From Fibrobacter succinogenes subsp. succinogenes S85 (lineage in GTDB: Bacteria > Fibrobacterota > Fibrobacteria > Fibrobacterales > Fibrobacteraceae), in contig NC_017448.1 of the NCBI RefSeq assembly GCF_000146505.1, forward strand, positions 1,020,001 to 1,052,000: a DNA stretch of 32,000 nucleotides. The letters run 5' to 3'. Of the stretch, positions 323-27,536 are shown one piece after another. The notes beneath the pieces are model-generated. The model saw only the letters and a list, made by a program, of their open reading frames with translations. It searched no databases and was not told the origin of the DNA. Position numbers and translations under genes: made by a program. Numbering within the stretch: position 1 is the first letter of the stretch; the number at the start of each line of letters is the position of its first letter.

Positions 323-346
323 CACCGGAGAAATCCGGTGTTTTTT
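323..346 (+). terminator. rho-independent terminator after rubrerythrin
   Basis: Stem caccgga (323-329), loop gaaa, stem tccggtg (334-340), then T6 (341-346). The T-tract overlaps the stop codon of the convergent minus-strand gene. Confidence 0.6.
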
Positions 347-2141: not shown

Positions 2142-2301
2142 GACATGAAAGAAGTGCTCAGGAACAATGCAAAACAGGCTTGTTATGCGCCCAGCTCCGC
2201 ACGCAGCACGAAAAAGTTCCTACATTTTCCATCAGTAACATTCTCTACCGGGATCGCCATCCCGATGGATTAACTCTCAACAAATGAGGAACAAACAAAA
2301 A

Positions 2302-3576: not shown

Positions 3577-3737
3577 AGGTTGTGAGGTTATGAGGTATGA
3601 GCACGCGACCTATGGTCGCTTTGGGGTTATGTTAGGTGCCTTCGGCACAATTTATAGCCCAGAGGGAGCAAGGCTCCCGACCTCAAAGTGAGCGGAGCGA
3701 ACGACCTCATAGCCCAATTCCTCAATCCGAAGGATTG
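3577..3737. repeat. intergenic repeat/hairpin cluster with two ATAGCCC boxes (copy B)
   Basis: It begins right after the TAG stop with the 7-8-nt periodic gaggttgt/gaggttat/gaggtat/gagcac. Hairpins: gcgacc-tat-ggtcgc, gtgcc-ttc-ggcac, gggagc-aa-gctccc and aatcc-gaa-ggatt. ATAGCCC sits at 3654-3660 and 3709-3715, and agcaaggctcc at 3667-3677. Confidence 0.5.
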
Positions 3738-3740
3738 TAA

Positions 3741-5639
3741 ATGAAAAAATGGCGCATTGACGATTCCCGAGATCTTTACAACGTAAAGGGCTGGGGCGTA
3801 AGTTACTTTGACATTAACGACAAGGGTCACGCGACGGTTTCGCCGATCAAGAATGGCGGTCCGAGCATTGACCTTTACGAGCTCGTGCAGGAACTTTCCT
3901 TGCGCGATGTTTCGACTCCTGTGTTGTTGCGCTTCCCGGATATTCTGGACAGCCGCATCGAAAAGATTCACGAGTGCTTCACGAAGGCGACGACTGAATA
4001 TGGCTACAAAGGTGGCCATTACAGCATCTTCCCGATCAAGGTGAACCAGCAGCGCGCGGTCTTGGAAGAAGTGGTGAGTCACGGTTCCAAGTTCAACATC
4101 GGCCTCGAGGCAGGTTCCAAGCCGGAACTCCACGCGGTACTTGCGAACATGGAAAATCCGGACGCGTTGATTATCTGCAACGGCTACAAGGACGAAGACT
4201 TTATCGAGCTTGCACTCCTCGCACAGAAGATGGGCAAGAAGATTTTCATTGTCGTCGAAAAGATGAACGAGCTTCACTTGGTTGTTGACTTGTCTCGTCG
4301 AATCGGCGTGCGCCCGAACATCGGCATCCGTATCAAGCTTGCAAGCTCTGGCAGTGGCAAGTGGGAAGAATCCGGCGGATACCACAGCAAGTTCGGTCTG
4401 AACAGTTCTGAACTTTTGGAAGCTCTCGACTACATCAAAGAAGAGAAGATGGAAGACTGCATGAAGCTCATCCACTTCCACTTGGGCAGCCAGATTACGA
4501 ACATTCGCCATATCAAGAATGGACTCCGCGAAGTGTCGCAGTTCTACGTTCAAATTAGAAAGATGGGCATGGGCCTTGAATTCGTGGACGTGGGCGGTGG
4601 CTTGGGCGTCGATTACGATGGCACGCGCAGTTCTAACGCAAGTTCCGTGAACTATTCCATCCAGGAATACGCAAACGACGTTGTGTACGCGATGTTCGAA
4701 GCATGCGAAAACGCCGATGTTCCTCACCCGAATATCATTGCGGAATCGGGCCGTGCACTTTCGGCTCACCATTCCATTTTGGTATTCAACGTTTTGGAAA
4801 CGGCTGGCCAGGCATTCTTTGACGAAAGCGTTCACGAGATTAGCGATGACGCGCCGGAAGCACTGAAGGACTTGTACGGCATTTACAAGAGCCTTTCTCC
4901 GAAGAACTTGCTCGAAAGCTGGCACGATGCCATGCAGATTAACGACGACACCTTGAGCGGTTTCAAGATGGGCGACGTGGATTTGCAGACGCGCGCTATG
5001 AGCGAACGTTTGTTCTGGAGCATCGCCCGCAAGGTGGACTTGCTCGCACGCGACTTGCGCCATCCGCCATATGAATTGAGCGAACTCCCACGCTTGCTTG
5101 CCGAAAAGTACTTCTGCAACTTCAGCCTTTTCCAGAGCCTCCCGGACAGCTGGGGCGTGGATCAGGTGTTCCCGATTATGCCGATCCAGCGTTTGGACGA
5201 AGAGCCGACGATTGAGACGACGATTCAGGACGTGACTTGCGATAGCGATGGCAAGATTGACATGTTCGTTCGCGGTGGCGAAGTGGCACGCACCATTCCT
5301 CTCCACCCGATCAAGAAGGACGAACCGTACTTTATCGCGGTTTACCTCGTCGGTGCATACCAGGAAATTCTCGGTGACCTCCACAACCTCTTTGGCGATA
5401 CGAACGCTGTGCATATTGTCTGCAACGACAAGGGCGGCTACGATATTGACAAGGTGATTGACGGTGAATCCGTGGAAGACGTGCTCGACTACGTGAACTT
5501 CAGCGACAAGGCTCTTGTCCGCAACATGGAAAACTGGGTCACGCGCTCTGTGAAGGAAGGAAAGATTACGCTTCAGGAAGGCAAAGAATTCTTGAACATC
5601 TATCGTTCCGGACTTTACGGGTACACGTATCTGGAGTAA
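3741..5639 (+). CDS. speA: biosynthetic arginine decarboxylase
   Basis: 632-aa ORF with the N-terminus YNVKGWGVSYFDIN. It carries the motifs FPIKVNQQ, HFHLGSQI, GGGLGVDYDG and ESGRAL of PLP fold-III SpeA enzymes. AAGGA lies 8 nt upstream of the ATG. Confidence 0.95.
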   Translation: MKKWRIDDSRDLYNVKGWGVSYFDINDKGHATVSPIKNGGPSIDLYELVQELSLRDVSTPVLLRFPDILDSRIEKIHECFTKATTEYGYKGGHYSIFPIKVNQQRAVLEEVVSHGSKFNIGLEAGSKPELHAVLANMENPDALIICNGYKDEDFIELALLAQKMGKKIFIVVEKMNELHLVVDLSRRIGVRPNIGIRIKLASSGSGKWEESGGYHSKFGLNSSELLEALDYIKEEKMEDCMKLIHFHLGSQITNIRHIKNGLREVSQFYVQIRKMGMGLEFVDVGGGLGVDYDGTRSSNASSVNYSIQEYANDVVYAMFEACENADVPHPNIIAESGRALSAHHSILVFNVLETAGQAFFDESVHEISDDAPEALKDLYGIYKSLSPKNLLESWHDAMQINDDTLSGFKMGDVDLQTRAMSERLFWSIARKVDLLARDLRHPPYELSELPRLLAEKYFCNFSLFQSLPDSWGVDQVFPIMPIQRLDEEPTIETTIQDVTCDSDGKIDMFVRGGEVARTIPLHPIKKDEPYFIAVYLVGAYQEILGDLHNLFGDTNAVHIVCNDKGGYDIDKVIDGESVEDVLDYVNFSDKALVRNMENWVTRSVKEGKITLQEGKEFLNIYRSGLYGYTYLE

Positions 5640-5740
5640 GAAGTAGACAGTAGGAAGTAGGCCGTAGACAGGACTGTAGGCGGGAAAATCCGCCCATAGC
5701 CCAAGGGCCGCAAGGCCCGAGCCCATACCCCACTCCCTTT
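5640..5740. repeat. intergenic repeat/hairpin cluster with ATAGCCC box (copy C)
   Basis: Directly after the speA TAA there are four 7-nt units gtagaca/gtaggaa/gtaggcc/gtagaca (TAG at 5644, 5651, 5658, 5665). These are followed by hairpin ggcgg-gaaaat-ccgcc, ATAGCCC (5696-5702) and hairpin gggcc-gcaa-ggccc. Confidence 0.5.
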
Positions 5741-9850: not shown

Positions 9851-9923
9851 GCGGGAGTAGCTCAGTTGGTAGAGCGCGACCTTCCCAAGGTCGATGTCGA
9901 GGGTTCGAGACCCTTTTCCCGCT
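9851..9923 (+). tRNA. tRNA-Gly (anticodon CCC)
   Basis: I folded a 73-nt cloverleaf by hand. Acceptor gcgggag/ttcccgc, D arm gctc-agttggta-gagc, anticodon arm cgacc-ttCCCaa-ggtcg, variable atgtc, T arm gaggg-ttcgaga-ccctt, discriminator U. The 3' CCA is not encoded. Confidence 0.9.
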
Positions 9924-9931
9924 CTAAGTTA

Positions 9932-13524: not shown

Positions 13525-15558
13525 ATGCGCATAATCCGCAAAAAAAGCCCCTATATCGTTTCATCTCTTTTGAACATTGCTTTTTTTACTATTTTCTCTA
13601 ACATGATTCAGAATTTTTTAAACAAAATAAAAGATCTTTTAGCGCCTTACAAAAACATCGCTTATATTTCGCTTGCCGTTTGGTGTACTCATATTGTTCT
13701 TCGCATATTATTGTTATTCCGCAACAATCCCTACGGTTTTCCATTCGTTTCAAAGCCCGACTGGTATATTTTCCATGCAATCACCTTAGACTTTCTTTGG
13801 ATTTGCAATTCACTCGTCGTCTTCATGATTATCGGCGCAGCATTCCAAGCAGCGACCAAGAAACGAGTCACAGCCGCAAAAACTTTGACCATCATATACG
13901 CAGTATTCCATTCTATTCTTTTGATAGCTACCATTTTTGACCATGAACTGATGCGATTCCTCGGTTGCCATCTGTCTTTCGGACTGGCGAACACCTACAA
14001 AGACGTTTCATCATTCCGCATGTTCTGGGACTATTCAGCCAATGACAATTCAATTCCATTTATTCAATTTTTCATGTTCGCGCTTGTCATTCCCATAACG
14101 TATTTCCTATACAAACTATATTTGCGCAAATTCACTTCGGTAAAAAAATTTTCCATTTTCATGGTCATCTTTTATGTCATTTCATATTTATTCATAAATG
14201 TTATCTGGACAGGACACGGACGACTGAAAAAATTACGTCCTGTAGTCAGCACGGTTTACCGCGAACTCTTTGAAATCCAAAAGAAAACTGAATTTTCCGA
14301 CGGCGAGCTCCTCGCCTACGGAAAAATGTACCAAGAACTTTGGCAACGCCTCGAAGGCGACAGCCTTTGGGAATTTTCATCTGCAAAGGAAAGCAACGGA
14401 CTCCCTCTCTACCGCATTCCAAAGCAGGAACTTCTGCAAAGCGAACAATTAAAGCAGCAACGATCACTCAAGCCAAACTTTATCTTGATTCTCATGGAAT
14501 CCGAGCGCGGTTTGAACGTCGGTTGCCTCAATCCGAATTTAAAGCCTTCGCCCACGCCATTCATCGATTCCATTGCCGCCAATTCGCGTCTTTGGGAACG
14601 CATGCACACAAGCGGGCTACCGACAACGGGAGGAGTCCTTACGACACACCTCGGCATTTCGGACCATTCCACACTTTCGGCGGCAACAGATCTCGTACAA
14701 CAAAATCTTCCGAGTTTTGCATCAACGCTTACGGATTCCGGTTACACTACGCATTACATGTCGGCGGCGGACCCGGCCTGGGACAATCTCGGCGTATGGA
14801 TGTCCAAATGGTACACAGCGCAACATTACGACCGCAGTCGCGAAGACGATTCTACGTTCATTGACCACGCCATCAGTTTCATCAGGGATACGCTCGGCTC
14901 ACAAGAAAAACCGTTCCTCGCAACGCTCATGACGCGTTCAAACCATTACCCGTTCAACTTTGCCGCAGGCATGACCGAAGAACAAAAGCAAAAACCGCTA
15001 ACGGAACGCATCAATTACACCATGGCTTACGCGGACAGGCAAGTATCAAGACTGATTCACGCCATCGAAAACAAGGACTGGTATCAAAATACATACGTCA
15101 TCATCATGGCGGATCACGGATTCCCGCTTGGAGAAAACGGTTCCTCGACAATGACTGGCTACGCATTTTCAAACGCCACCTGGATTCCGTTCCTCATCCA
15201 CGGTAAAGGCATTGAACCTGCACGCGATACCGCAACGGCTTCGCAAATGGATATCGCCCCCACGATTCTTGAGCTTGCCGGTATCGCAGTCCCGAACATT
15301 TTCATGGGCCACAACCTTCTGAGAGGTCACGGCGAGGGCTATTCGCTAGGGGCCTACACGGGAGTCAAAGCTATAGGTCTTGACAGTTACCGTCTCATTT
15401 CAAAGCCATCTACAGAAGAAAAATGGCTGTTTGCCGAAGGCGACACGCGCCAAGACAAAGAAGTTTCAAAAGAGCATGAGGATGTGGTCAAGCGCCTCCG
15501 CGGAAAACTGGACTCGCTCGTAAAACTAGCCGACTATTCGCTAGAGAAGGGACTTTAA
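13525..15558 (+). CDS. LtaS/OpgB-type membrane phosphotransferase (sulfatase-fold), paralogue 1
   Basis: Start at ATG 13525, with an alternative ATG at 13603. About 5 N-terminal hydrophobic helices precede an ectodomain with ILILMESERG (metal Glu), GLPTTGG (nucleophile Thr) and IIMADHGFPLGENG (Asp-His). There is no C/S-x-P-x-R sulfatase motif. Confidence 0.8.
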   Translation: MRIIRKKSPYIVSSLLNIAFFTIFSNMIQNFLNKIKDLLAPYKNIAYISLAVWCTHIVLRILLLFRNNPYGFPFVSKPDWYIFHAITLDFLWICNSLVVFMIIGAAFQAATKKRVTAAKTLTIIYAVFHSILLIATIFDHELMRFLGCHLSFGLANTYKDVSSFRMFWDYSANDNSIPFIQFFMFALVIPITYFLYKLYLRKFTSVKKFSIFMVIFYVISYLFINVIWTGHGRLKKLRPVVSTVYRELFEIQKKTEFSDGELLAYGKMYQELWQRLEGDSLWEFSSAKESNGLPLYRIPKQELLQSEQLKQQRSLKPNFILILMESERGLNVGCLNPNLKPSPTPFIDSIAANSRLWERMHTSGLPTTGGVLTTHLGISDHSTLSAATDLVQQNLPSFASTLTDSGYTTHYMSAADPAWDNLGVWMSKWYTAQHYDRSREDDSTFIDHAISFIRDTLGSQEKPFLATLMTRSNHYPFNFAAGMTEEQKQKPLTERINYTMAYADRQVSRLIHAIENKDWYQNTYVIIMADHGFPLGENGSSTMTGYAFSNATWIPFLIHGKGIEPARDTATASQMDIAPTILELAGIAVPNIFMGHNLLRGHGEGYSLGAYTGVKAIGLDSYRLISKPSTEEKWLFAEGDTRQDKEVSKEHEDVVKRLRGKLDSLVKLADYSLEKGL

Positions 15559-17480
15559 GGCATTAGCAAGTTGCTATAGACAATGTATCGCCAAGCAATG
15601 GCGGCAGCTTGCATCGTGCGGCCAATTTCCGATTTCATCGCAGCATCCATCGCAAAAGGCATTCCGGTTCCATACCCCGCCACAAGCGAGGACGTATTCC
15701 ATGTGGGCTTTAGATAGCTCTTGAAAACCATCACGGAATCCGAGATTGTGCATTGCGGGAGCAAATACGTGAGAGAATCTCGCCTCATGGCCATATCGCC
15801 AAAACGGAACGAGAACACAGGCGGGAAAGCACCTACAGCAGGCATCCCCTTCCCCAGCAAATCAACACCCATGAAATGATTGGACGCACTGATATCCAAG
15901 TATCCTAGCAGCGATGGCGCAAGATCCGCCTGCGAAACAGGATTTTCAATCACAGCAGGTTCAATTCCCGGCCCGTTAAAAATCAAGGACACCCATGTAA
16001 AGCCGTCAAAAATTTGGCCAAGCTTTTCTGTCAAGAGGGACTGCTTGCCGTTCAGAAGCGAATGATCACCCGTAAGAACAAACAACGTATTTCTAGCACG
16101 TGTTCCATTTTCAACTTCATCCAAAATAATGCCAAGAGAACTGTCCATATAAGCAGTCGCTTTCAGATACGCTTCGTCAAGGTCTTCCGGCTTCGGCCCC
16201 ATATCAGGCGGCAAGTCAAACGTTGTATGCATGCTGCGGCTCATCCAATGGAAGAACAGAGGCTTATCAGCCGGGCGTTCGCGGTACAGTTCAACAAAGC
16301 GCTTTGCTAAAGCGACATCGTTTTCATTTTCTGCATTGTACTCATAAAAATCAAACCATTTCTGGAACCAAACCAGGCTATTGTCAAAATTCGGTTCAGA
16401 ACCAATCAGGACTTCCGTGTAATAACCCGCTTCAGAAAGAATTTCAGAAATAGAGCGCATTTTTGTGTTCGGATAACTGTTCAAGAAAATGCCTTGCGGA
16501 AAACTGAAAACGCCCTGCATAATGCCCAGAAGGCCCTCAATCGACGGGAATCCAACACTATGTGTGTTAGGGTAATAAGCGCCTCCCCTTGCGAGCTTGC
16601 ACAAATTACGGAAGCGATTGCAACTTTCTTCAATTCGCATGTCAAGCGCCCATCCGCGAAGGCTTTCTATCGTCAAAACGATAATGTCCGGGCGTTCTTC
16701 CATCGGTTTAGCCTTGAAAAATTCCATCGAAGCTTTTTCGTCTTTCGCTTCTTTCCAGAACGGATATTTTTGGTCCGGATTTCCGCCCAAAGCAATAATG
16801 CCTTCACGGTAATGCTCTCCGGGATCGCTCATTTCAAACGTCTCAAAAACGTTTTCCACAAGCGTATAGGCGACAGGGCGAATACGGTCCCAGCGTCTGC
16901 TCGATGGATTGAACCACAAATGCGACGTGCAACCGACAACGGCAAGCACAAAAATCAAAGCGACAGCCCCGGCGGACTTTTTATCAAACGGCAAGCTGGA
17001 AGCTTCTGCAAGGTCGTATTTTTTTACGTACAAAATCAGCGCGACCATAAAAGCGACAACAATCAACGCCGAAAGAACAAAGTGGAATGCGCTACCTGCA
17101 AAAATAGTTGAAACAAGTCCCGTATCCGTAAACGCAAAGATATACGTTCTTATATACGAAAGCGTCAGTCGCTGGCTTATCCAGCGCATGATTTCGTCAT
17201 TCGTTGCACTGAGCACAAGATACAAGAAAGCAAGAACAAGCGAAACAACCTTGACCACAGTATAGCCCTTGCCCCGAACTATTTTCGAAACGCCCCAAAA
17301 GACGAGAGCCACGGCCATGACAAGGCCTATCTCGGAATACAGCGCATACCACAAGAAACGATTGAAATTCGAAACTAAAGGCCCTCCCAAAGGTGTATCC
17401 ATCATGTAAAGAGCACATAACTGAGCAAAACGCCCTAACGCCAAAATGAGCGCAAAGAAGAACCAATAGTAACGAAGCAT
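15555..17480 (-). CDS. LtaS/OpgB-type membrane phosphotransferase (sulfatase-fold), paralogue 2
   Basis: I chose ATG 17480; the track start 17489 is a TTG three codons upstream. A multi-helix N-terminal domain precedes VLTIESLRGW, GFPSIEG (Ser at the nucleophile position) and VLTGDHSLL. The ATG lies 9 nt after the MMPL stop codon. Confidence 0.8.
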   Translation of the reverse strand: MLRYYWFFFALILALGRFAQLCALYMMDTPLGGPLVSNFNRFLWYALYSEIGLVMAVALVFWGVSKIVRGKGYTVVKVVSLVLAFLYLVLSATNDEIMRWISQRLTLSYIRTYIFAFTDTGLVSTIFAGSAFHFVLSALIVVAFMVALILYVKKYDLAEASSLPFDKKSAGAVALIFVLAVVGCTSHLWFNPSSRRWDRIRPVAYTLVENVFETFEMSDPGEHYREGIIALGGNPDQKYPFWKEAKDEKASMEFFKAKPMEERPDIIVLTIESLRGWALDMRIEESCNRFRNLCKLARGGAYYPNTHSVGFPSIEGLLGIMQGVFSFPQGIFLNSYPNTKMRSISEILSEAGYYTEVLIGSEPNFDNSLVWFQKWFDFYEYNAENENDVALAKRFVELYRERPADKPLFFHWMSRSMHTTFDLPPDMGPKPEDLDEAYLKATAYMDSSLGIILDEVENGTRARNTLFVLTGDHSLLNGKQSLLTEKLGQIFDGFTWVSLIFNGPGIEPAVIENPVSQADLAPSLLGYLDISASNHFMGVDLLGKGMPAVGAFPPVFSFRFGDMAMRRDSLTYLLPQCTISDSVMVFKSYLKPTWNTSSLVAGYGTGMPFAMDAAMKSEIGRTMQAAAIAWRYIVYSNLLMP

Positions 17481-17489
17481 AATTATCAA

Positions 17490-20099
17490 TTACTTTTTCT
17501 TGAGCCAGCTACCGCAGAGGTACATGCTGAAGATGACACTTGTGATAAGGAACATGGCAATGCTGATGCAAGCAAGGTCTCCAATGCCCTTCAATCCGCG
17601 ATGTGTCGTGAAGAGGAATCCGACAAAACCTGCAATAGTCGTTGTGGAGCTAGCCATCACATTGCGGCCCGTCGTATCGAACAACTGACGAAGCGTCATG
17701 TCCTTGTTGGACTTGGAAGTCCAAGAGGTGACAAAATGAATCGTCGAATCGATGCCAATACCAAGCGCCATCGGAATCACAATCACATTATAAATACTGA
17801 TTTTTCCAAACTCAAAGAAATGCGTCAGACAGCCAAGAAGTCCAAGCGTAAGGAGCGTACCCATGCCAAACGAAATGCAACCCGCCAAGAAATATTTCGG
17901 CTTGCGGAACGAAATGACAAGCGTACCAAAAATGACGAGAATAATAACAAGAGCAAGTCTAAAGCTATCCTGCTTCACAGATTCTATCACATCGGACAAA
18001 ATAAACTGCGAAGAGAACGTCCGCAATTCCTCGCCATCGAAATTCCAATGAGCATAACGTTCCTGGAAGCGGTGCAAAGCCTTGGCATCCCAGCTCGGGA
18101 AGTCGCCATAAATAAAGCCAATTTTTCCGTAGCTTCCGTCTTTTTCACGGAGCAGGTCGATTGTCCAGGCTGGAACATCTTCTGCGGTAAACGTTTTTTC
18201 AACTTGAGCCAACTTGCGGAGCGTCGCCACGTTCACAGAGTCTTCACCTTCAGAGCGGTCAAACACGCGGGCTTCCACCAAATCGCGGATTTCCTCAATC
18301 ACTTCAAGGCGTTTTTCCTGCGAATCCGCCGGCGGAACAAAACTCTTCAGCGTAAGGAAACTCCCTAGCGTAGAATCGTGTTCGACATGCAAGCGCACCA
18401 TCAGTGTATCGTACAACTTGTCAAGCTGTTCGGGCGTGCTACCCATAACGGCAGCAGGTGTCGACGTCACGGCCTTATTGGTTGCACGAGTTACCTTAGT
18501 CGAAATGCCTCGCGGTTTCACCACCTTAGCCGATTGGACTCTGCGCAAGTTCTTCAAATTATGTTCAAAATCTACGTCTTGAGCATAATAGAGCGACACC
18601 GCCCCCAGAACAAACCCGATACAAGCCAGCACCTTGAAAAATTTCGTGATTTTCGCATCATCCCAAGAATTCGGTAGCAAGCTATTCTGCGGAGCAGCCG
18701 GGATGCCGCCCATGCACTTGATAAACACCGGAAGCACGAGCACCGACGTAAGCATACTGAAAATCACGCCCATCGAAGCGACAACACCGAATTCATAAAA
18801 GCCTCTGAAATGTGCTGCAAGCAACGTGAGGAACGCAGCGACCGTCGTAAAGCTCGCCAAAATAAACGGTTTGAGCATTCTGCGTTGAGCCGCTTCAAGT
18901 ACTTCTTCCAACGAAGCAAATTGATGCATCAGTTTCTGCGACGTTCCCAAAATATGGATGGAATAGTCAATACCGATACCAAGAATAATGGACGCTACAA
19001 AAACCGTGAACGGATTCAGCTTGCCATAGAAAAGCGCCGTAAACGCAAGCGTCGGAATACAAGCGTAAAGCACGGAAAGAGTCACGAGAATCGGACCTTT
19101 CACGCTTCTAAAGAAGAACATCGTAAGGAAAATAATTAGGACAAGGCTTATGCCGAAGGAGAATACGGAATCGTTCGCCACTTCGTCCACTTCCTTGAGG
19201 CCTTCGTAAGTTCCATCCACAGCAAAGCGCATCGGCGAAGAATAAGTCTTGCTTCTGAAATGCTGCAACAACGTATCAGTACGGGCTAGAATATGCGTTA
19301 CAAATTCATAGTCCGTCGAAGGCTTGATGAGTTTCGCATTGACAATTCCGTTGAACAGAATCTTTCCGGTACTGTCAGGTTGCGGGCTACCAATCAAACG
19401 GGACTTCAGGCTATCAGGTATTGTTGATTTCGGATTCCATTCCGTAGCATTGCCTGCAACTTTAACGGAATCCTTCTTATCTTTTTTGAAGAATGCGTCA
19501 AATGCACCGACAGCTTCTTCAGGAAGTCCAAGTTCCTGCGGCAAGTTCGCATCAAACCAGACACGTTCCTTTTTCGGAGCATTTTCTTGCAAACTATCGC
19601 CACTGGGGTCACTCAAAAGATCAACAACTAACGGACCATTTTTACGCCCCAGTTCCAATTGCAAGTCATCAAGATTATCGCGAATATTCTCCAAATGCTT
19701 TACAGGCAAATACAACAGCGCATTATCCTTAAAGAACTGGTTGTTGTTATCTACCTGGGTCGAGACAAAATCACCCTGCCAATTATTGTGAATATAGGCT
19801 GCAATGGAATCTTGCAAAGCCAGAACAAGATTCATGTCCTCGCTCTGTATAGCAATCGTAAAACGGTCAGTACTGCCGAATCTCGTAAACGATTCCTGCA
19901 AAGCCTTGACGCTAGGCGTATCCTCCGGCAAAAGATGCGAAAGATCCGCATCAAGCTTAAGCCCAGGCTTGTAAAGAATCAAGACAGACAGAAGAACCGC
20001 CAGCAGCAAATAAAAGGTAAGCGCCTTATATTGATGCCTACAGATTAAGGGGATATACCAGTTGGAAAAGCGTTCTACAAAAGTCTTTTTAGTAGTCAT
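17490..20099 (-). CDS. MMPL/HpnN-like RND-superfamily transporter
   Basis: I chose ATG 20099; the track start 20108 is a TTG. The protein has two 1+5 TM halves, each preceded by a large periplasmic loop. Asp-containing relay motifs GIGIDYSIH and GIGIDSTIH occur in the equivalent helices of each half, as in MmpL3/HpnN. Confidence 0.8.
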   Translation of the reverse strand: MTTKKTFVERFSNWYIPLICRHQYKALTFYLLLAVLLSVLILYKPGLKLDADLSHLLPEDTPSVKALQESFTRFGSTDRFTIAIQSEDMNLVLALQDSIAAYIHNNWQGDFVSTQVDNNNQFFKDNALLYLPVKHLENIRDNLDDLQLELGRKNGPLVVDLLSDPSGDSLQENAPKKERVWFDANLPQELGLPEEAVGAFDAFFKKDKKDSVKVAGNATEWNPKSTIPDSLKSRLIGSPQPDSTGKILFNGIVNAKLIKPSTDYEFVTHILARTDTLLQHFRSKTYSSPMRFAVDGTYEGLKEVDEVANDSVFSFGISLVLIIFLTMFFFRSVKGPILVTLSVLYACIPTLAFTALFYGKLNPFTVFVASIILGIGIDYSIHILGTSQKLMHQFASLEEVLEAAQRRMLKPFILASFTTVAAFLTLLAAHFRGFYEFGVVASMGVIFSMLTSVLVLPVFIKCMGGIPAAPQNSLLPNSWDDAKITKFFKVLACIGFVLGAVSLYYAQDVDFEHNLKNLRRVQSAKVVKPRGISTKVTRATNKAVTSTPAAVMGSTPEQLDKLYDTLMVRLHVEHDSTLGSFLTLKSFVPPADSQEKRLEVIEEIRDLVEARVFDRSEGEDSVNVATLRKLAQVEKTFTAEDVPAWTIDLLREKDGSYGKIGFIYGDFPSWDAKALHRFQERYAHWNFDGEELRTFSSQFILSDVIESVKQDSFRLALVIILVIFGTLVISFRKPKYFLAGCISFGMGTLLTLGLLGCLTHFFEFGKISIYNVIVIPMALGIGIDSTIHFVTSWTSKSNKDMTLRQLFDTTGRNVMASSTTTIAGFVGFLFTTHRGLKGIGDLACISIAMFLITSVIFSMYLCGSWLKKK

Positions 20100-20122
20100 A
20101 ATTCTCAATATAAAAAAATATT

Positions 20123-22051
20123 TTATCTAGGTTCCATGTTATCATTCCGGAGAAGCGAGCGCAACACCTTTGACGTAGAAACAGCACGCTTTTTCCAAGT
20201 CAACGAAACAGCATCCTTCACCTCTTTAAAAGATCCGTCTATATCGCTATAGACTTCTTCGTTATCGAGTCCCCCAGTGAGCACATGATCACGAAATCCC
20301 AAGAAATAAGCATTCTGCGAGAAGAAAAGCGATGGCTGTTCAGCCGGACGTTCTTCTGTTAACAAATCATACCCCCAAAAATGGTTTGGTTCGCGAACCT
20401 GAGCAAGATCCATCACCGTAGGCCCCATATCGAGCTGCGACGCAACATCTTCACGGACTGTAAGCCCATTGAACAAATTGCTATCCGGCGAGAAAATTCC
20501 CATGAAAATTCTCGAAACAGAAACACCCAGCGGCTGCGGCACCGCATAATCGACGGAATCCACAGGCGTGTCATGATCGCCAAGAACGACGATAACTGTA
20601 CGCTCGAAATCTGGACGAGACGAAAGTTTTTCAAAAAAACGGCCCAGTTGCTTATCCGTATAACGAATCGCATTGTAATAGCGGGCCATGGCATCGTCCG
20701 GCTTCGGCGCGAAATCATCGGGATACTCAAAGAACGGGATATGCGACGTAATTGTATTGAACGCAATAAACCAGGAACTATCCGTAGGCAGTTTCGGCAA
20801 ATGAGAAATAACCATATCAACACCAACGCTATCAATGATGGTGCCGTCAGTCACGTTCTGAGGAAAGCTCCAGTTGTTCTTATAAAACCTTTCTACAAAA
20901 GGTAAAGTATGGTCAAATATCGGATTAGAAACAGTAATGTAGAACTTGTGGTAATTCTTTAAATACTCGGGAATTCCCGTAAAATGGTTCGAAGAATAAA
21001 AACTCGGCAAGTCGCGATTCGGATGCGAAGGGAAACCTAAATAAGTAGCCATCGTCCCGCGAACCGTGGGATATCCCCCGCTGTAGCCATTCTTGAACCA
21101 GAGACCGCCACCACCATTCGTAAACATTTTTCCTGTCGCAAGATTCCACAAGTTCGGAGCAAGAGTCGTATCGCCCTCCAACATGCGGTTAAAAATGCGC
21201 CCCTTGAAAGACTCGCCCATGATAAACACGATATTGTAGGGCTGTTTAGCGCGATATTCATGTTTCGCGGCCGAGCGGTACACCGGGAAATCCTCAACAT
21301 TCGATCGATTCGCCACCATGTTTTCGGGGAGGAATGATTCCATGTCCTTGCGGATTTCGTCCGTAATCTTTTCGTTGTCGTAAAAGAACTCAAACGTTTC
21401 TTGCACAGCGATATGCAATACCGGAGCCGTCAACGTATATTTACCCAGAGTCATGCGCAAGTTTATATGCGTATGCGTAATCGGGAGATAGAGATCCCCG
21501 CGAACGCCACAGGCAAAGAAAATCAAAGGCAAAAGCAAGAAAGCGGCGCCCACAGAAATAAACACGACAGGGACTTTCCGGGCATGCTTTTCAGGCGAAA
21601 GGAAGAGCCCCGTGAGAACGCCCCTGGCAGCCCTCTTTCGCATTGTATAAACGACACAGAATACGATACTCGCAACAACACCCGCCAGAGCAAGTGAAAT
21701 ATACAGAATCGTTCCCTTGAGGTCCCCGCCAAGCGTTCCAATAGTCGTCGCATCCGTAATATTCGAAAAATGGAAATACGTCCTCAAAAAAGAAAAAGAC
21801 AAACGCTGATGCGAAAAGCGGAAAACTTCATAATCGGCGGTCGCCAGAACAAAATAGAATCCAAAAAAGATGGCCAATGCACGAGGCGCTTTCAGGAACG
21901 CAAAGATGGCGGACACGAACAAAATTGTGCCAAACGCCATAAGGACCTGCCAAAATATTTTACCTTCGAACAGTTCCGTAAGGGATAGCCCAAGCGGATC
22001 CGGCAAAGTATAGAACAGGACGAGCATAATCGTTTGCAGCAAAAACGCCAC
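20123..22051 (-). CDS. LtaS/OpgB-type membrane phosphotransferase (sulfatase-fold), paralogue 3
   Basis: Start at GTG 22051, with an alternative ATG at 22027. About 5 N-terminal helices precede VFIMGESFKG, GGYPTVRG and VVLGDHDTP. The gene ends 23 nt before the MMPL start. Confidence 0.8.
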   Translation of the reverse strand: MAFLLQTIMLVLFYTLPDPLGLSLTELFEGKIFWQVLMAFGTILFVSAIFAFLKAPRALAIFFGFYFVLATADYEVFRFSHQRLSFSFLRTYFHFSNITDATTIGTLGGDLKGTILYISLALAGVVASIVFCVVYTMRKRAARGVLTGLFLSPEKHARKVPVVFISVGAAFLLLPLIFFACGVRGDLYLPITHTHINLRMTLGKYTLTAPVLHIAVQETFEFFYDNEKITDEIRKDMESFLPENMVANRSNVEDFPVYRSAAKHEYRAKQPYNIVFIMGESFKGRIFNRMLEGDTTLAPNLWNLATGKMFTNGGGGLWFKNGYSGGYPTVRGTMATYLGFPSHPNRDLPSFYSSNHFTGIPEYLKNYHKFYITVSNPIFDHTLPFVERFYKNNWSFPQNVTDGTIIDSVGVDMVISHLPKLPTDSSWFIAFNTITSHIPFFEYPDDFAPKPDDAMARYYNAIRYTDKQLGRFFEKLSSRPDFERTVIVVLGDHDTPVDSVDYAVPQPLGVSVSRIFMGIFSPDSNLFNGLTVREDVASQLDMGPTVMDLAQVREPNHFWGYDLLTEERPAEQPSLFFSQNAYFLGFRDHVLTGGLDNEEVYSDIDGSFKEVKDAVSLTWKKRAVSTSKVLRSLLRNDNMEPR

Positions 22052-22274
22052 AGACGTAATTAAGATAAACGGATTTTTAAAAAACTGTTTGATAATAGTA
22101 CCCTACGTTTCAAGCCATGTAAAAATAAAAAATTGTAAAAACAGGGCATTTGTCAGCTGTTCATTTTGCGACCAATCGTAAATTTTCACGACGAAGCGCA
22201 AAAGCAGTCGCTCATTTTGCCCTAATGAGCACTACAAAATTTTCTGACAGGAAATTTTTACTACATTTCGAGCC

Positions 22275-24815
22275 ATGAATCAAGAAACACCCGATACTAC
22301 TCTAGGTTTATCTAACGTCAATCACCTAGAACGACTTTACGATGGTTGGTTCCTCGATTACGCCAGCTATGTGATTTTGGACCGTGCGGTCCCGTATTTT
22401 GAAGATGGCCTGAAGCCTGTTCAGCGCCGTATTTTGCATTCCATGTTCGAAAACCACGACGGACGCTACCAGAAGGTGGCTACGATCGTCGGTCGAACGA
22501 TGGCTTACCACCCGCATGGCGACGCCTCCATCGGCGATGCTCTTGTGGGCCTCGGTCAGAAGAATTTGCTCATCGACACCCAGGGTAACTGGGGCAACCC
22601 CTACACGGGCGACCGCGCTGCAGCTCCCCGTTATATCGAAGGCCGCCTCACGCCGTTCGCTGTCGATGTCGTGTTCAACCCCGAAACGACGGAATGGATC
22701 CCGAGTTACGATGGCCGTAGCGAAGAACCGGTCACGCTCCCGGTCAAGTTCCCGTTGCTTTTGGCTCAGGGCGTCGATGGTATCGCAGTCGGTCTCTCGA
22801 CTTCCATCCTCCCCCACAACTTCCGCGAACTCTGCGAGGCTAGCATCGCCTGTTTGCGCGGCAAGAAGTTTACGCTTTACCCGGACTTTTTCACGGGCGG
22901 CATTATCGACGTGTCGGACTACAACGACGGTCAACGCGGGGGCAAGGTCAAGGTCCGCGCGAAGATTGAAAAGGTCGATAACAAGACGCTCGCCATCCGC
23001 GAAATCCCGTACGGCACCACGACCGTGAGCTTGATTGAAAGCATTGTCAAGGCAAACGACAAGGGCAAAATCAAGATCAAACACGTGGACGACAACACGA
23101 GCCAGGGCGTTGAAATTCTCGTGCACTTGCAGCCGGGGACGGACCCGCAGGTCGCCATCGATGCGCTTTACGCCTTCACGGACTGCGAAAAGTCGCTCTC
23201 TCCGTGCACTTGCGTCATTATCGACAAGCACCCGAAATTTGTCGGTGTTTCTGACATTTTGAAGCTCAACACGGAACACACCGTGAAGCTTTTGGAATGG
23301 GAACTCGCCAACGAGCTCAAGCACCTCGAAGACAAGTGGCACATGACCACGCTCGAAAAAATCTTTATCGAGAAAGAAGTCTACGAGGTCATCAAGAAAG
23401 CAAAGGACCGTGAACAAATTATCCGCCTCGTTCGCGAAGGCCTCACGCCGTACCTCAAGCGTCTGCACCGCCAGACCGTTACGGACGAAGAAATCGGCAA
23501 GCTCATTGAAATTCCGATCCGCCGTATAAGCCATTACGACCGCGAAAAGGCCGACCAGCTTTTGCAGGAACTCGAAGAAAACATTGCAAAGTGCAAGTAC
23601 AACCAAGAACACATTATCGATTACGCCGTAAACCACTTCAAGAACATCTTGAAGAAGTACGGCGAAGGCAAGGAACGCCGCACGCAGATTGCCGAATTCG
23701 GTAAGGTGAACGCCGTACACGTGGCACTTGCAAACCAGAAGCTTTACGTGAACCGCAAGGAAGGTTTCGTGGGCACCGGCATGAAGAAGGAAGAATACCT
23801 CTTCGACGTGTCGGAATACGATGACTTGATCGTGTTCAAGGCCGACGGCAGCTTCAAGGTCGTGAAGGTCAGCGACAAGGACTTTGTCGGTAAGGATATC
23901 ATTCTCGTCGAAAAGTTCAACAAGGACGATGAACGCCATATCTATAACGTCATCCACCAGGATGGCAAGGACGGCTACGCTTACATCAAGCGCTTCAACG
24001 TCGGCGGCGTGACTCGCGACAAGGATTACTACATGGGCAAGAACAAGCCCGGTAGCAAAATCCTTTACATGTCGAGCAACATGAACGGCGAAGCCGAAGT
24101 GGTCGAAGTCATCTTGAAGCCGCGTCCGCGCATCAAGCTGAACTTTGAAGTGGACTTCAGCGAAGTCGAAGTCAAGGGCCGTGGCGCCATTGGCAATATC
24201 GTTTCGAAGTACCCGGTCAAGACAGTCAAGAGACTCCGCAAGGGCGTTTCGACGCTTGGCGCAAGAGTGCTTTACTTCGATGCTCCGAGCGGTATCGTCT
24301 CGACGCAGAAGAAGGGCGATTGCCTCGGTGAATTTGGCGAAAACGACAAGCTGCTCATCATCAAGCAAGATGGTAGCGCTCGCGTCCACACCATGGCAGA
24401 CCCGATTCTCGTCGGTTCGAACATCAAGTATCTGCACAAGTACGACCCTGCTCAGGTCTTTACGGTGCTCTACTTCGAAGGTTCGAATTTCAACTACATG
24501 GTCAAGCGCTTCAACCTTGAAGGCTGCCCCATGACGACGGAATTCAGCGTAGTCTCCGACCACAAGGACACGAAGCTCATCGAGCTCTTTGCAACTGATG
24601 ACGCCCGTGAACTGATGGAATACCAGGTCGGTCGCGAAGTCCAGAAGGAAGAACTCGACTTGACGGAAATTGCGGAAGTCAAGGGCTACAAGGCTCTCGG
24701 AAGCAAGTTCACCGCCAAGAAGATCAAGCGCGTGAGCCGCATTTCGCCGGCAGATCCGTTTAGCGACGGCAGCGGTGAAAGCGAAGGTTCTAACGAAGAT
24801 CCGAGCTTATTCTAA
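22275..24815 (+). CDS. parC: DNA topoisomerase IV subunit A
   Basis: WFLDYASYVILDRAVPYFEDGLKPVQRRILHSM, HPHGD, and the catalytic Tyr in AAPRYIEGRL. The 846-aa length and N-terminal pattern fit FCB-group ParC better than GyrA. Confidence 0.85.
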   Translation: MNQETPDTTLGLSNVNHLERLYDGWFLDYASYVILDRAVPYFEDGLKPVQRRILHSMFENHDGRYQKVATIVGRTMAYHPHGDASIGDALVGLGQKNLLIDTQGNWGNPYTGDRAAAPRYIEGRLTPFAVDVVFNPETTEWIPSYDGRSEEPVTLPVKFPLLLAQGVDGIAVGLSTSILPHNFRELCEASIACLRGKKFTLYPDFFTGGIIDVSDYNDGQRGGKVKVRAKIEKVDNKTLAIREIPYGTTTVSLIESIVKANDKGKIKIKHVDDNTSQGVEILVHLQPGTDPQVAIDALYAFTDCEKSLSPCTCVIIDKHPKFVGVSDILKLNTEHTVKLLEWELANELKHLEDKWHMTTLEKIFIEKEVYEVIKKAKDREQIIRLVREGLTPYLKRLHRQTVTDEEIGKLIEIPIRRISHYDREKADQLLQELEENIAKCKYNQEHIIDYAVNHFKNILKKYGEGKERRTQIAEFGKVNAVHVALANQKLYVNRKEGFVGTGMKKEEYLFDVSEYDDLIVFKADGSFKVVKVSDKDFVGKDIILVEKFNKDDERHIYNVIHQDGKDGYAYIKRFNVGGVTRDKDYYMGKNKPGSKILYMSSNMNGEAEVVEVILKPRPRIKLNFEVDFSEVEVKGRGAIGNIVSKYPVKTVKRLRKGVSTLGARVLYFDAPSGIVSTQKKGDCLGEFGENDKLLIIKQDGSARVHTMADPILVGSNIKYLHKYDPAQVFTVLYFEGSNFNYMVKRFNLEGCPMTTEFSVVSDHKDTKLIELFATDDARELMEYQVGREVQKEELDLTEIAEVKGYKALGSKFTAKKIKRVSRISPADPFSDGSGESEGSNEDPSLF

Positions 24816-25561: not shown

Positions 25562-26251
25562 TTACAAAATATCGCGGTTTAAAAGTTCGCCGTGGCTGAG
25601 TTCAAGGCGGCGGAACGGGCTGTTCAGATAAAAGTCCGGGTTATGCGTAGCCATGAGGATGGTCGTACCGCGTGCATTGATTTCCTTGAAAATGCAGAAC
25701 ACTTCTTCAGCGTTTTTCGGGTCCAAGTTACCGGTCGGTTCATCCGCCAAAAGCAAATACGGGTTGTGCACCATCGCACGGGCAATCGCTACGCGCTGCT
25801 GTTCACCGCCCGAAAGCGTGTAAGGCATCGCAAAGCGCTTTTGGCTAATGCCCACGAGCGCAAGCGCGTCAAAGACCGCAGCATTAATCTTATTGCTCGG
25901 AGTCCCCACAATGCGGAGCGCAAGCGCCACATTCTCAAAAACATTGCGATCCGGCAACAGCTTAAAGTCCTGGAAAATAATTCCCATCTTGCGGCGGAGC
26001 GCCTGGATTCTATCGTCCGGCGTATTCTTGCTATCGTACAAGATGTTGTCCGAGAACTTGACCATCACCTGGCCACCGCGCTGTTCATCCGGACGTTCGT
26101 CCATGTAGATGAGTTTCAGCACCGTCGACTTTCCGGCGCCGGAATGCCCCGTCAAGAAAACAAACTCGCCTTTATTAATGCGGAAGGTGACGTTGTTCAA
26201 CGCCTTCCAGTTGGCTTCGTAAGATTTCGTGACGTGGGTAAAATGGATCAT
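25562..26251 (-). CDS. ftsE: cell-division ABC ATPase FtsE
   Basis: [48 protein letters not shown] is colinear with E. coli FtsE. Signature LSGGEQQRV and Walker [13 protein letters not shown] are present. Confidence 0.9.
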
Positions 26252-26252
26252 A

Positions 26253-27536
26253 TTATTCCGTCATTCTGATTTCGACGAGAACTTCCTTGCGCCACTTTTG
26301 GATGAGCTTCTGGAGCTTTTCATTTTCCAAGTGCGTTGCGGCCATAAGTTCAATCTTGCCGTAATCTTCTTCAAGAGTGAGTTCGCGCACCTGGCGGGAA
26401 TCATCAAGACGGAACAAGTGGTAAGCGCCATCGATCATGACCGGTTCAGAAATTTCACCGACGTTCAAGTTCGCGACCGGATCCACATAAGCAGGTTCCA
26501 TTTCGTTACGCTGGAACCAGCCAAGCAAGCCTCCCTGGAAGTTGCTGGACTTGTCTTCGCTGAACTTCTTTGCGGCCTTGGCAAATTCATCCTTCGACTT
26601 AATATTGTTGCGGAGAGAATCGGCGAGAGCCAATACCGCAGCGGAATCCTTTGCAGTCGGAATCGTGCGCAAGAGGATCTGTGCAGAGCGGACGCCATCT
26701 TCCTTACGGCCAAGCACGCGAGCAATATGCCAGCCCAAATCCGTCTTGACCGGAGTCGATGCATAATGACCGTTCTTCAAGCGTTCAATAGCCTTTTCGA
26801 AAGCAGGGTCCAAGAGACCACGCTTAAAGTAACCGAGGTCGCCACCCTTTGCGGCAGTGCTATCCTGCGAATGGCGCTGGGCCAAAAGTTCAAATTTGAT
26901 GCCGAGGTTGAGGCTATCAATCAACGCTTCAGCGACATGCTTCACCGAGTCCACAATCATGGAATCCGGCTTAATCGGGAGCTGGATATGGCTCAACAAG
27001 ACGCAGTTGAACTGGCGCGGGAGCGAATCCTTGTAATCCTTGTAGAAGACATCCACTTCTTTCTTGGTCGGGTGGATCGTGCCTACGTGGAGCTGGCGCA
27101 CGCGGGAAATTTCCATGTGACTACGGATTTGCTTACCAAGCTGTTCGCGGTACTGGATCATCGAAAGACCAAGCTGCGCGCGCACCGCCTTTTCGAGCGT
27201 CGCCATATCAATCTTCTGGCTTGCGGCAATAGACTGCAAATGAGAAGTCACGCGCTGGTCCACTTCGTTTTCCGAAATCACAATCGAGTCGCGGTCAATG
27301 CGGCTGAGCAAAACCTTTTCTTCAATCATGCGATTCAGCACAGCTTCTTTCTGTTGCTGTTCAGTCATGCTCGCAGCTTCGGGCGTGTCCTGGAACCTGT
27401 AAAGGTTGTTCATGAACTCCGAACGCATAATCGGCTTGCCATCGACAACAGCCGCAATCCCTTCCATCAAAACAGGCTCGGCAAAGCAGCCGACAGAGAG
27501 GGCAAAAACTAAAGAGGCAATTCGATTACTGATCAT
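26253..27536 (-). CDS. surA: periplasmic chaperone / peptidyl-prolyl isomerase with two parvulin domains (SurA-like)
   Basis: Signal peptide MISNRIASLVFALSVGCFA, followed by a SurA-N-like region. Parvulin 1: GGDLGYFKRGLLDPAFEKA...GWHIARV. Parvulin 2: GGLLGWFQRNEMEPAY...GAYHLFRL. The length of 427 aa is close to E. coli SurA. Confidence 0.75.
   Translation of the reverse strand: MISNRIASLVFALSVGCFAEPVLMEGIAAVVDGKPIMRSEFMNNLYRFQDTPEAASMTEQQQKEAVLNRMIEEKVLLSRIDRDSIVISENEVDQRVTSHLQSIAASQKIDMATLEKAVRAQLGLSMIQYREQLGKQIRSHMEISRVRQLHVGTIHPTKKEVDVFYKDYKDSLPRQFNCVLLSHIQLPIKPDSMIVDSVKHVAEALIDSLNLGIKFELLAQRHSQDSTAAKGGDLGYFKRGLLDPAFEKAIERLKNGHYASTPVKTDLGWHIARVLGRKEDGVRSAQILLRTIPTAKDSAAVLALADSLRNNIKSKDEFAKAAKKFSEDKSSNFQGGLLGWFQRNEMEPAYVDPVANLNVGEISEPVMIDGAYHLFRLDDSRQVRELTLEEDYGKIELMAATHLENEKLQKLIQKWRKEVLVEIRMTE

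Follow-up and report, generated by a model that had tools for sequence, protein, structure and literature searches.

In a 32,000-nucleotide stretch of the genome of Fibrobacter succinogenes subsp. succinogenes S85 (contig NC_017448.1, positions 1,020,001 to 1,052,000, referred to here as the window), three genes for diverged LtaS-like membrane proteins, which we call paralogues A, B, and C, lie around the gene for an MMPL-family resistance-nodulation-division (RND) transporter. We found that A, B, and C are members of the LtaS/VP1736 branch of the alkaline phosphatase superfamily. Their best explanation, which we hold with evenly balanced confidence, is that each is an accessory enzyme that works independently of the others and transfers head groups onto surface glycans or glycolipids as a decoration, often encoded in Fibrobacter beside an HpnN/MmpL-like exporter. 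The number and combination of these enzymes vary among Fibrobacter species, so the locus is probably a variable one for surface decoration and not a fixed machine. The features concerned are listed below, with coordinates counted from the first letter of the window.

13603..15558, plus strand: paralogue A, probable start M27, 651 amino acids (aa), five transmembrane (TM) helices and a sulfatase-fold ectodomain
13525-15558, plus strand: open reading frame (ORF) of paralogue A as opened, with the Thr nucleophile codon at 14623-14625 and the membrane motif at 13945-13998
15555..17480, minus strand: paralogue B, putative LtaS-like membrane transferase (ORF 15555-17489, ATG 17480)
16542-16544 and 17142-17195, minus strand: Ser nucleophile codon and membrane motif, respectively, of paralogue B
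17490..20099, minus strand: MMPL-family RND transporter, 869 aa (ORF 17490-20108, ATG 20099)
18954-18980 and 17736-17762, minus strand: transporter Asp motifs GIGIDYSIH and GIGIDSTIH, respectively
20123..22051, minus strand: paralogue C, putative LtaS-like membrane transferase, with the Thr nucleophile codon at 21065-21067
21776-21829, minus strand: membrane motif of paralogue C
22052..22274, between divergent genes: intergenic region of C and a gyrase/topoisomerase IV subunit A gene, holding a synteny breakpoint and a promoter-like site

An initial annotation of this DNA, made from the sequence alone, had reported gaps of 23 nt between C and the transporter gene and of 9 nt between the transporter gene and B, and both hold with the starts ATG 20099 and ATG 17480. 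It had also described A as converging on these genes with an overlapping stop codon, and the stops of A and B do overlap, within a shared TTAA. The start of A was moved to M27 (13603) on the basis of an alignment of A-clade orthologues and is considered probable because these orthologues begin at the residue that aligns with M27. Being encoded on the other strand, A forms a transcription unit of its own.

All three proteins match the Pfam Sulfatase family (PF00884) above its gathering threshold of 25 bits, with scores of 122.2 bits for A (E = 3.4e-35), 78.5 bits for B (E = 7e-22), and 74.7 bits for C (E = 1e-20). Hydropathy, an AlphaFold2 (AF2) model of C, and the alignments of B agree on the LtaS-type architecture of five TM helices followed by an extracytoplasmic domain, and in the model of C, which has a predicted local distance difference test (pLDDT) score of 78.5, five long helices precede residue 181; the earlier description of three ORFs that combine about five TM helices with a sulfatase-fold ectodomain is therefore upheld at these coordinates. 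The NCBIfam LtaS equivalog model (NF053595) scores A, B, and C at 62, 51, and 32 bits, respectively, against a cut-off of 970, and its 51-bit alignment covers residues 59 to 552 of B, TM helices included. The OpgB model (PRK12363, cut-off of 572 bits) scores A at 34.9 and C at 27.8 bits, the YejM model (NF038282, cut-off of 825 bits) scores them at 22.4 and 16.3 bits, and neither matches B. By these cut-offs, membership in the LtaS, OpgB, and YejM equivalogs is ruled out. There were also weak matches to choline-sulfatase and arylsulfatase models.

The LtaS-type active site is complete in each protein. In A, B, and C, respectively, the metal Glu motif reads LMESERG, TIESLRG, and MGESFKG, the nucleophile motif reads LPTTGG, FPSIEG, and YPTVRG, and the Asp-His motif reads ADHG, GDHS, and GDHD; the His equivalent to H416 is also present, and B has Ser in place of Thr. 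All of the hallmarks that the initial annotation quoted are thus found, and they extend well beyond the window. When the window's three sequences were pooled with 91 other LtaS-like ORFs, collected from 79 loci of related genomes, Glu325, Thr/Ser367, His474, Asp530, and His531 (A numbering) proved invariant in 94 of 94 sequences, as did Arg144 and Tyr158 of the membrane motif. These sequences form three clean clades, with 26 members in A (at least 57% identical), 16 in B (at least 47%), and 52 in C (at least 58%), and the nucleophile is always Ser in the B clade and always Thr in the A and C clades. Identity between clades is 17 to 26% (about 25% pairwise for A, B, and C themselves in a three-way alignment), and because it is this low between clades and high within them, we agree with the proposal that A, B, and C are old paralogues.

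A formylglycine sulfatase is ruled out by the nucleophile positions, which read PTTGG, PSIEG, and PTVRG with no Cys/Ser-x-Pro-x-Arg there. The initial annotation had stated that none of the proteins has this motif of true sulfatases, but C does hold a matching string, SHPNR, at residues 342 to 346, 13 residues past the nucleophile position. An alignment of ten C-clade sequences shows the H, P, N, and R of this string to be invariant and the S nearly so, and the string is absent from A and B.

We also compared the proteins with Staphylococcus aureus LtaS, using an LtaS sequence whose ectodomain agrees with the 2w5q alignment. With this sequence, BLASTP aligned residues 25 to 566 of B end to end (E = 2e-13), and the core of the membrane motif aligned with 'YFRFFSDFLTFS'. 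The motif is present in A, B, and C as had been claimed, but its alignment in LtaS makes it a family feature and not one peculiar to these three proteins. In the modeled topology, it would lie in the periplasmic loop between TM3 and TM4; an anchor of five TM helices that carries a conserved motif in such a loop is in keeping with a lipid substrate.

The best solved structures by sequence for A, B, and C are VP1736 of Vibrio parahaemolyticus (3lxq), then LtaS and LtaP. A Foldseek search with the AF2 model of C, in which TM-scores were normalized to the target, ranked 3lxq first (0.77), followed by PbgA/YejM (6v8q and 6xlp, which match the model over its full length, TM and periplasmic parts both), LtaP/LtaS (~0.7), and arylsulfatases (0.36 to 0.59). 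A placement with arylsulfatases or phosphonate hydrolases is ruled out by motif and fold, and the profile and structure comparison that the initial annotation had named as able to overturn its LtaS-type assignment comes out on the LtaS side. VP1736 is the best match in both sequence and fold, at about 20% identity; it shares with B an N-F-D-N type motif and Ser at the nucleophile position, and a P-x-[FW]-D-[NH] motif in the glycerol-phosphate contact stretch is common to A, B, C, and 3lxq. VP1736 is uncharacterized, so this match transfers no function to A, B, and C. LtaS and LtaP (2w5q, 4uoo, and 4uop) have five TM helices and an extracellular alkaline phosphatase-fold domain, as A, B, and C do, and share with them the Glu, Thr (Ser in B), and Asp-His set, the H416-equivalent His, and the core of the TM-loop motif (R...L-T/S). 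In contrast, identity is 16 to 23% and the glycerol-phosphate contacts are replaced in A, B, and C; moreover, LtaS and LtaP are the lipoteichoic acid synthase and primase of Firmicutes, where LtaS polymerizes glycerol phosphate from phosphatidylglycerol onto a glycolipid anchor, whereas the host of A, B, and C is a diderm described as lacking lipopolysaccharide (LPS), with variable gene content and no fixed synthase. LtaS-like chemistry is very likely for A, B, and C. The data show their placement by family and fold, their conserved catalytic residues, and their gene neighborhoods, whereas we infer a transferase activity, its donor, and its acceptor.

The transporter matches Pfam MMPL (PF03176) at 66.3 bits in two stretches (gathering threshold of 20.5), and hydropathy and an AF2 model (pLDDT 77) give it 12 TM helices and two periplasmic domains. 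Its best NCBIfam match is HpnN (TIGR03480), at 187.5 bits against a cut-off of 751.85; a second HpnN model (NF052374) scores 107.9 bits against 1,100, and the HAE3 score is also below its cut-off. A sequence search of solved structures likewise matched HpnN, and Foldseek placed HpnN (5khn, E = 6e-23) first, followed by MmpL4/5, NPC1/Patched, and MmpL3, all of them lipid-handling RND proteins, with AcrB-type pumps lower. The modeled fold is that of a lipid-transporter-type RND protein. Thus, the earlier description of an MMPL/HpnN-like transporter stands for the Pfam family, for both Asp motifs, and for the fold and best hit, while the cut-offs rule out an HpnN equivalog and leave HpnN as the nearest solved fold only. 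TM4 and TM10 carry the conserved acidic residues that mark proton-driven RND transporters; within the transporter family, D378 is invariant and D784 nearly so.

HpnN is a hopanoid transporter, MmpL3/4/5 are mycobacterial lipid and siderophore exporters, and MmpL genes typically cluster with the biosynthesis genes of their lipid cargo. The Burkholderia HpnN and MmpL3/4/5 resemble the Fibrobacter transporter in the 12 TM helices, the two periplasmic domains, and the TM4/TM10 Asp motifs, but are 15 to 16% identical to it in fold alignments, and the Fibrobacter transporter belongs to a family of Fibrobacterota only. An identical 869-aa protein (P0001) is of metagenomic Fibrobacter type, proteins from named Fibrobacter genomes are about 83% identical, and full-length relatives grade down to about 30% identity. 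In a profile search, all named family members were from Fibrobacterota and the score fell from ~800 to ~490 bits outside that group; on this sequence criterion, the family does not extend beyond Fibrobacterota. The surroundings of the transporter in the window hold no hopanoid or mycolate genes, and a search confined to gene neighborhoods revealed neither a squalene-hopene cyclase nor hpn-type domains among the window genes or at four distant loci.

Conservation of the arrangement was assessed with a transporter-anchored scan, in which an alignment of 7 transporter sequences was searched against one genome per species and yielded 79 loci with 82 full-length transporter genes, in Fibrobacter and the rest of the Fibrobacteraceae as well as in Fibrimonadales. 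For 41 of these 82 genes, the upstream neighbor, at a distance below 300 bp and in the same orientation, is an LtaS-like gene: C in 35 cases, B in 5, and A in 1. Eight further transporter genes have an LtaS-like gene at a distance of up to 3 kb, and 31 have one downstream, mostly convergent. At least one LtaS-like gene is present within 10 kb in 58 of the 79 loci, and the number of these enzymes per locus ranges from none to four, with C alone in 25 loci, A and C in 17, B and C in 5, and all three clades in 5. The exact order C-transporter-B-A is seen only in the nearest relatives (L001 and L002, and the metagenomic loci L084, L086, and L087), while other loci have the orders A-transporter-C or transporter-C-A or divergent B-transporter and C-transporter pairs. 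The initial annotation had asked whether an LtaS-MMPL-LtaS arrangement is conserved among relatives: the placement of an LtaS-like gene directly upstream of the transporter recurs in half of the transporter genes, but the trio is not conserved, with all three clades together in only 5 of the 79 loci. At one locus (L095:4035-9897), three tandem B-clade genes stand divergently upstream of a C-transporter pair, a local amplification of one paralogue.

A C-anchored scan of metagenomes returned 80 loci, and gene counts were taken only where 1.5 kb or more of sequence was available downstream of the C gene. The transporter is in the same locus for 38 of 41 Fibrobacter-type C genes, and directly downstream in 24, compared to 0 of 15 loci for termite-gut-type C genes (56 to 58% identity). 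The arrangement brings known enzyme and transporter families into an undescribed, genus-level association; in the literature, we found no description of it, either in Fibrobacter or generally.

Several further observations bear on whether enzyme and transporter are coupled. Where transporters are duplicated within one locus, the copies are 74 to 86% identical, with one after B and the other after C, and in a neighbor-joining tree the B-partnered copies (L006, L010, L036, and L065) group in a clade separate from that of the C-partnered transporters in those genomes. C or A also stands directly upstream of the transporter in L062, L063, and L066, which are environmental lineages that branch early. 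In comparisons with species that lack A and B, DNA identity is 80 to 96% for the flanking housekeeping genes, 73 to 75% for the transporter, and 68 to 74% for C, and since the transporter has a low identity like that of C and unlike that of the flanks, it diverges with the island and not with the backbone. Each of these signs raises the case for a functional link without proof, and duplication or recombination at a hot spot could explain each of them. In Fibrobacter, the LtaS-like gene directly upstream is probably cotranscribed with the transporter, and the frequency of this placement suggests a loose functional link between enzyme and transporter, which is the sense in which we infer their coupling.

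The glycan genes found around C and the transporter indicate what such enzymes might act on. In termite-gut contigs, C belongs to a conserved cluster, where it is flanked on one side by a pair of GT32-like glycosyltransferases and on the other by a Stealth sugar-phosphate transferase; a UDP-sugar epimerase, a Wzx-type flippase, and a convergent TagF-like glycerophosphotransferase are also in the cluster. In several Fibrobacter species, glycan genes are inserted between C and the transporter: Wzx and GT32 in L108 and L026; LicD and GT4 in L158 and L163; and Wzx, LicD, an aminotransferase, phosphonopyruvate decarboxylase, and a PntC-PEP-mutase fusion in L113 and L115. As C is found in a Wzx-type cluster and glycan genes are inserted beside the transporter, the context points to glycan decoration and not to a lipoteichoic-acid-like polymerization. 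The literature describes F. succinogenes as lacking LPS and its exopolysaccharide as bearing N-hydroxyethyl-aminoethylphosphonate (Vinogradov 2001, cited in PMC8942020). In L113 (11960-18579; also in L115), the inserted genes comprise, beside those for the Wzx-like flippase and the LicD-family transferase, a complete aminoethylphosphonate-type cassette, transcribed divergently from the transporter, with a class-V aminotransferase, a thiamine pyrophosphate-dependent decarboxylase (Ppd), and a cytidylyltransferase-PEP-mutase fusion (PntC-Ppm). In L144 (3935-20056) and similarly in L137, the termite-gut cluster is followed by two tandem ORFs of ~760 aa with an N-terminal YidC/60KD_IMP domain, a length that is unusual for YidC-type insertases.

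In the window, C is located on a rearrangement junction. The ATG of C orthologues reads ACT here (22097-22099), so the ancestral start is lost, and the sole canonical start of C is GTG 22051, which makes the gene 16 codons shorter than its orthologues; homologous N-terminal coding sequence extends to ~22096 without a canonical start codon. blastn homology to the closest relatives (L084 at 98.9% and L001 and L002 at ~90%) stops at 22096-22103. Directly upstream of C is the gyrase/topoisomerase IV subunit A gene in the window, while L023 has ~7 kb, including a GH10 xylanase and a Fib_succ_major-domain protein, between the topoisomerase gene and C, and in L002 the upstream genes encode an SNF2 helicase, a flavin-binding protein, and a Listeria-Bacteroides-repeat protein. 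A promoter-like site at 22123-22095 on the minus strand is a consensus match only, and promoter and terminator scans gave uninformative counts near the shuffled expectation.

If A, B, and C are accessory transferases, each enzyme would most likely act at the periplasmic face, where it would remove a phosphodiester-linked head group from a lipid of the membrane, hold it as a covalent intermediate on Thr (A and C) or Ser (B) at the metal site, and pass it to a hydroxyl group on a glycan or glycolipid of the surface, in the manner of LtaS, GacH, and OpgB. The transporter would most likely move a lipid or glycolipid toward the outer membrane and could handle the lipid-anchored acceptor or product of the enzyme, a loose link. 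A likeness that is conceptual only is offered by LtaA-LtaS of Staphylococcus, in which the flippase LtaA brings a glycolipid to the outer face and the LtaS-type enzyme then modifies it; LtaA is of the major facilitator superfamily, whereas the Fibrobacter transporter is an RND protein. E. coli OpgB/MdoB, phosphoglycerol transferase I, acts on periplasmic glucans and is, like the proteins proposed here, LtaS-type, periplasmic, and from a diderm, and some C orthologues are named 'phosphoglycerol transferase MdoB-like' by the Joint Genome Institute (JGI); it differs in that A, B, and C fall below the model cut-off and that the window shows no opgGH-type genes. The best functional analogy for the C genes of the termite-gut clusters is with the streptococcal glycerol-phosphate transferases GacH and SccH, which act on rhamnose polysaccharides. 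GacH, an LtaS homologue encoded in a polysaccharide cluster, does not build a polymer but adds glycerol phosphate to a glycan via a Thr nucleophile; its donor is probably phosphatidylglycerol, and it belongs to a separate clade with eleven TM helices (10.1101/337519). The eleven TM helices differ from the five of A, B, and C, and the likeness is by description.

A number of observations weigh against this explanation. No LtaS-like gene is found within 10 kb in 21 of the 79 loci, Fibrimonadales transporter loci have no LtaS-like neighbors, and four more distant Fibrobacterota orthologues of the transporter stand among unrelated genes, one of them preceded by a PMT_2 glycosyltransferase. Because the transporter is alone in distant Fibrobacterota and in Fibrimonadales, it has a core role independent of the LtaS-like enzymes. 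Eight of the longer relatives of the transporter contained no transporter-sulfatase fusion, and neighbors could stay together through local inversions and duplications even without a functional link. S. aureus LtaS H347, D349, W354, and R356, which we take to be its glycerol-phosphate contacts, align to I, S, D, and S in B, in an alignment that is moderately reliable at ~20% identity. Finally, C may be impaired in this window, given the loss of its ancestral start codon.

These points lend some strength to an alternative that we consider possible but less probable, in which the adjacency has no functional meaning and a housekeeping lipid transporter simply stands beside a hot spot of variable glycan genes. 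It would account for a transporter that is phylum-wide but alone in distant relatives and Fibrimonadales, for the very variable content of the island, for the insertion of unrelated glycan genes at the same site, for the synteny breakpoint exactly at the start of C in the window, and for termite-gut lineages in which C is in a polysaccharide cluster without the transporter. Chance adjacency is harder to reconcile with three paralogues that are each found on the same strand directly upstream of the transporter with short gaps, with the partner-specific clades of duplicated transporters, with a transporter as divergent as the island and not conserved like the flanks, and with the pairing in the early-branching L062, L063, and L066.

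At the other extreme, an LtaS-like enzyme and the transporter could evolve together as one module responsible for building the outer leaflet in a diderm reported to lack LPS, a proposal that we regard as unlikely. In such a module, the transporter would extract an inner-membrane glycolipid and a dedicated partner enzyme would load it with a head group from a membrane lipid, possibly of aminoethylphosphonate type from a phosphonolipid, given the phosphonate cassettes at the locus, and exchange of enzyme/transporter pairs between species would lead to surface diversity.

The initial annotation had favored a dedicated machine of three enzymes, for example a primer, an extender, and a modifier, that decorate or polymerize an exported lipid with phospho-alcohol groups; in this model, they would build a lipoteichoic-acid-like polymer on the lipid anchor. 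LtaS-type architecture and catalytic residues, the operon-like spacing in the window, and the presence of LtaP (4uop) among the structure matches are in line with this idea, and Listeria and Bacillus do employ specialized LtaS paralogues. However, we consider such a system very improbable, because the enzymes of a stepwise pathway would be expected to stay together, whereas all three clades co-occur in only 5 of the 79 loci and C alone is the commonest content. In addition, A is encoded on the other strand, LtaS equivalog scores are 32 to 62 bits versus 970, and the glycerol-phosphate pocket residues are not conserved. Neither part of the proposal is supported: enzyme sets that vary among loci, with the distant Fibrobacterota unlinked, speak against an obligate machine, and the glycan-cluster context and the replaced LtaS residues speak against a polymerizing role.

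Least probable of all is a role other than transfer, in which the three proteins would either release nutrients as membrane-anchored phosphodiesterases or sulfatases or, like PbgA/YejM, serve as lipid sensors or regulators. Membership in the Pfam Sulfatase family, the weak choline-sulfatase and arylsulfatase model matches, and the full-length fold alignment with PbgA/YejM, TM domain included, might suggest such a role, but there is no Cys/Ser-x-Pro-x-Arg at the nucleophile position, arylsulfatases are structurally farther than LtaS and 3lxq, the YejM model gives 22 bits for A and 16 bits for C versus 825 with no B match, the five-TM anchor with its periplasmic-loop motif suits a lipid substrate, and a complete nucleophile and metal site invariant in 94 sequences argues against a purely regulatory role.

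Little is understood of the envelope of Fibrobacter, a major degrader of fiber in the rumen and hindgut. If LtaS-type decoration does operate with an exporter here, it would extend LtaS-type chemistry to the diderm outer membrane, give a handle on lipid supply to an outer membrane without LPS, and provide a source of strain-level surface variation that bears on phage, predator, and host interactions. Even on a conservative view, clades A, B, and C are well-defined, uncharacterized groups with intact catalytic residues and a pocket in common with 3lxq, and they are targets for assigning a new donor or acceptor specificity.

On the left flank of the system, three GT2 genes and NUDIX, HAD, and aspartoacylase genes keep their synteny with or without A, B, and C, so we treat these genes as backbone outside the system. 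An Rfam scan of the window found no regulatory RNA, and its sole match, the only RNA family match in the window, was a tRNA.

9851-9924, plus strand: tRNA-Gly (anticodon CCC)

A PL14 polysaccharide lyase gene (345-1385, minus strand) lies beside a low-G+C kilobase (1001-2000; 0.40 versus ~0.50 elsewhere), and a PL14 gene is also near the transporter orthologue at the distant locus L080. An FtsE equivalog (25562-26251, minus strand; 266.4 bits versus a cut-off of 264.85) adjoins a gene for a SurA-like chaperone; no FtsX-like gene was recognized beside it, where the downstream 170-aa ORF and the upstream 284-aa ORF, which is beyond the SurA-like gene, have no Pfam match. The window also contains long stop-free antisense ORFs at 2245-3480 (minus strand, 411 aa), 3627-5726 (minus strand, 699 aa), 22326-24563 (minus strand, 745 aa), and 26229-27512 (plus strand, 427 aa), which oppose the well-supported saccharopine dehydrogenase, arginine decarboxylase, topoisomerase subunit A, and SurA genes, respectively. 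Two of the four were scanned and gave no Pfam match, and these long antisense ORFs are probably shadow ORFs from codon bias.

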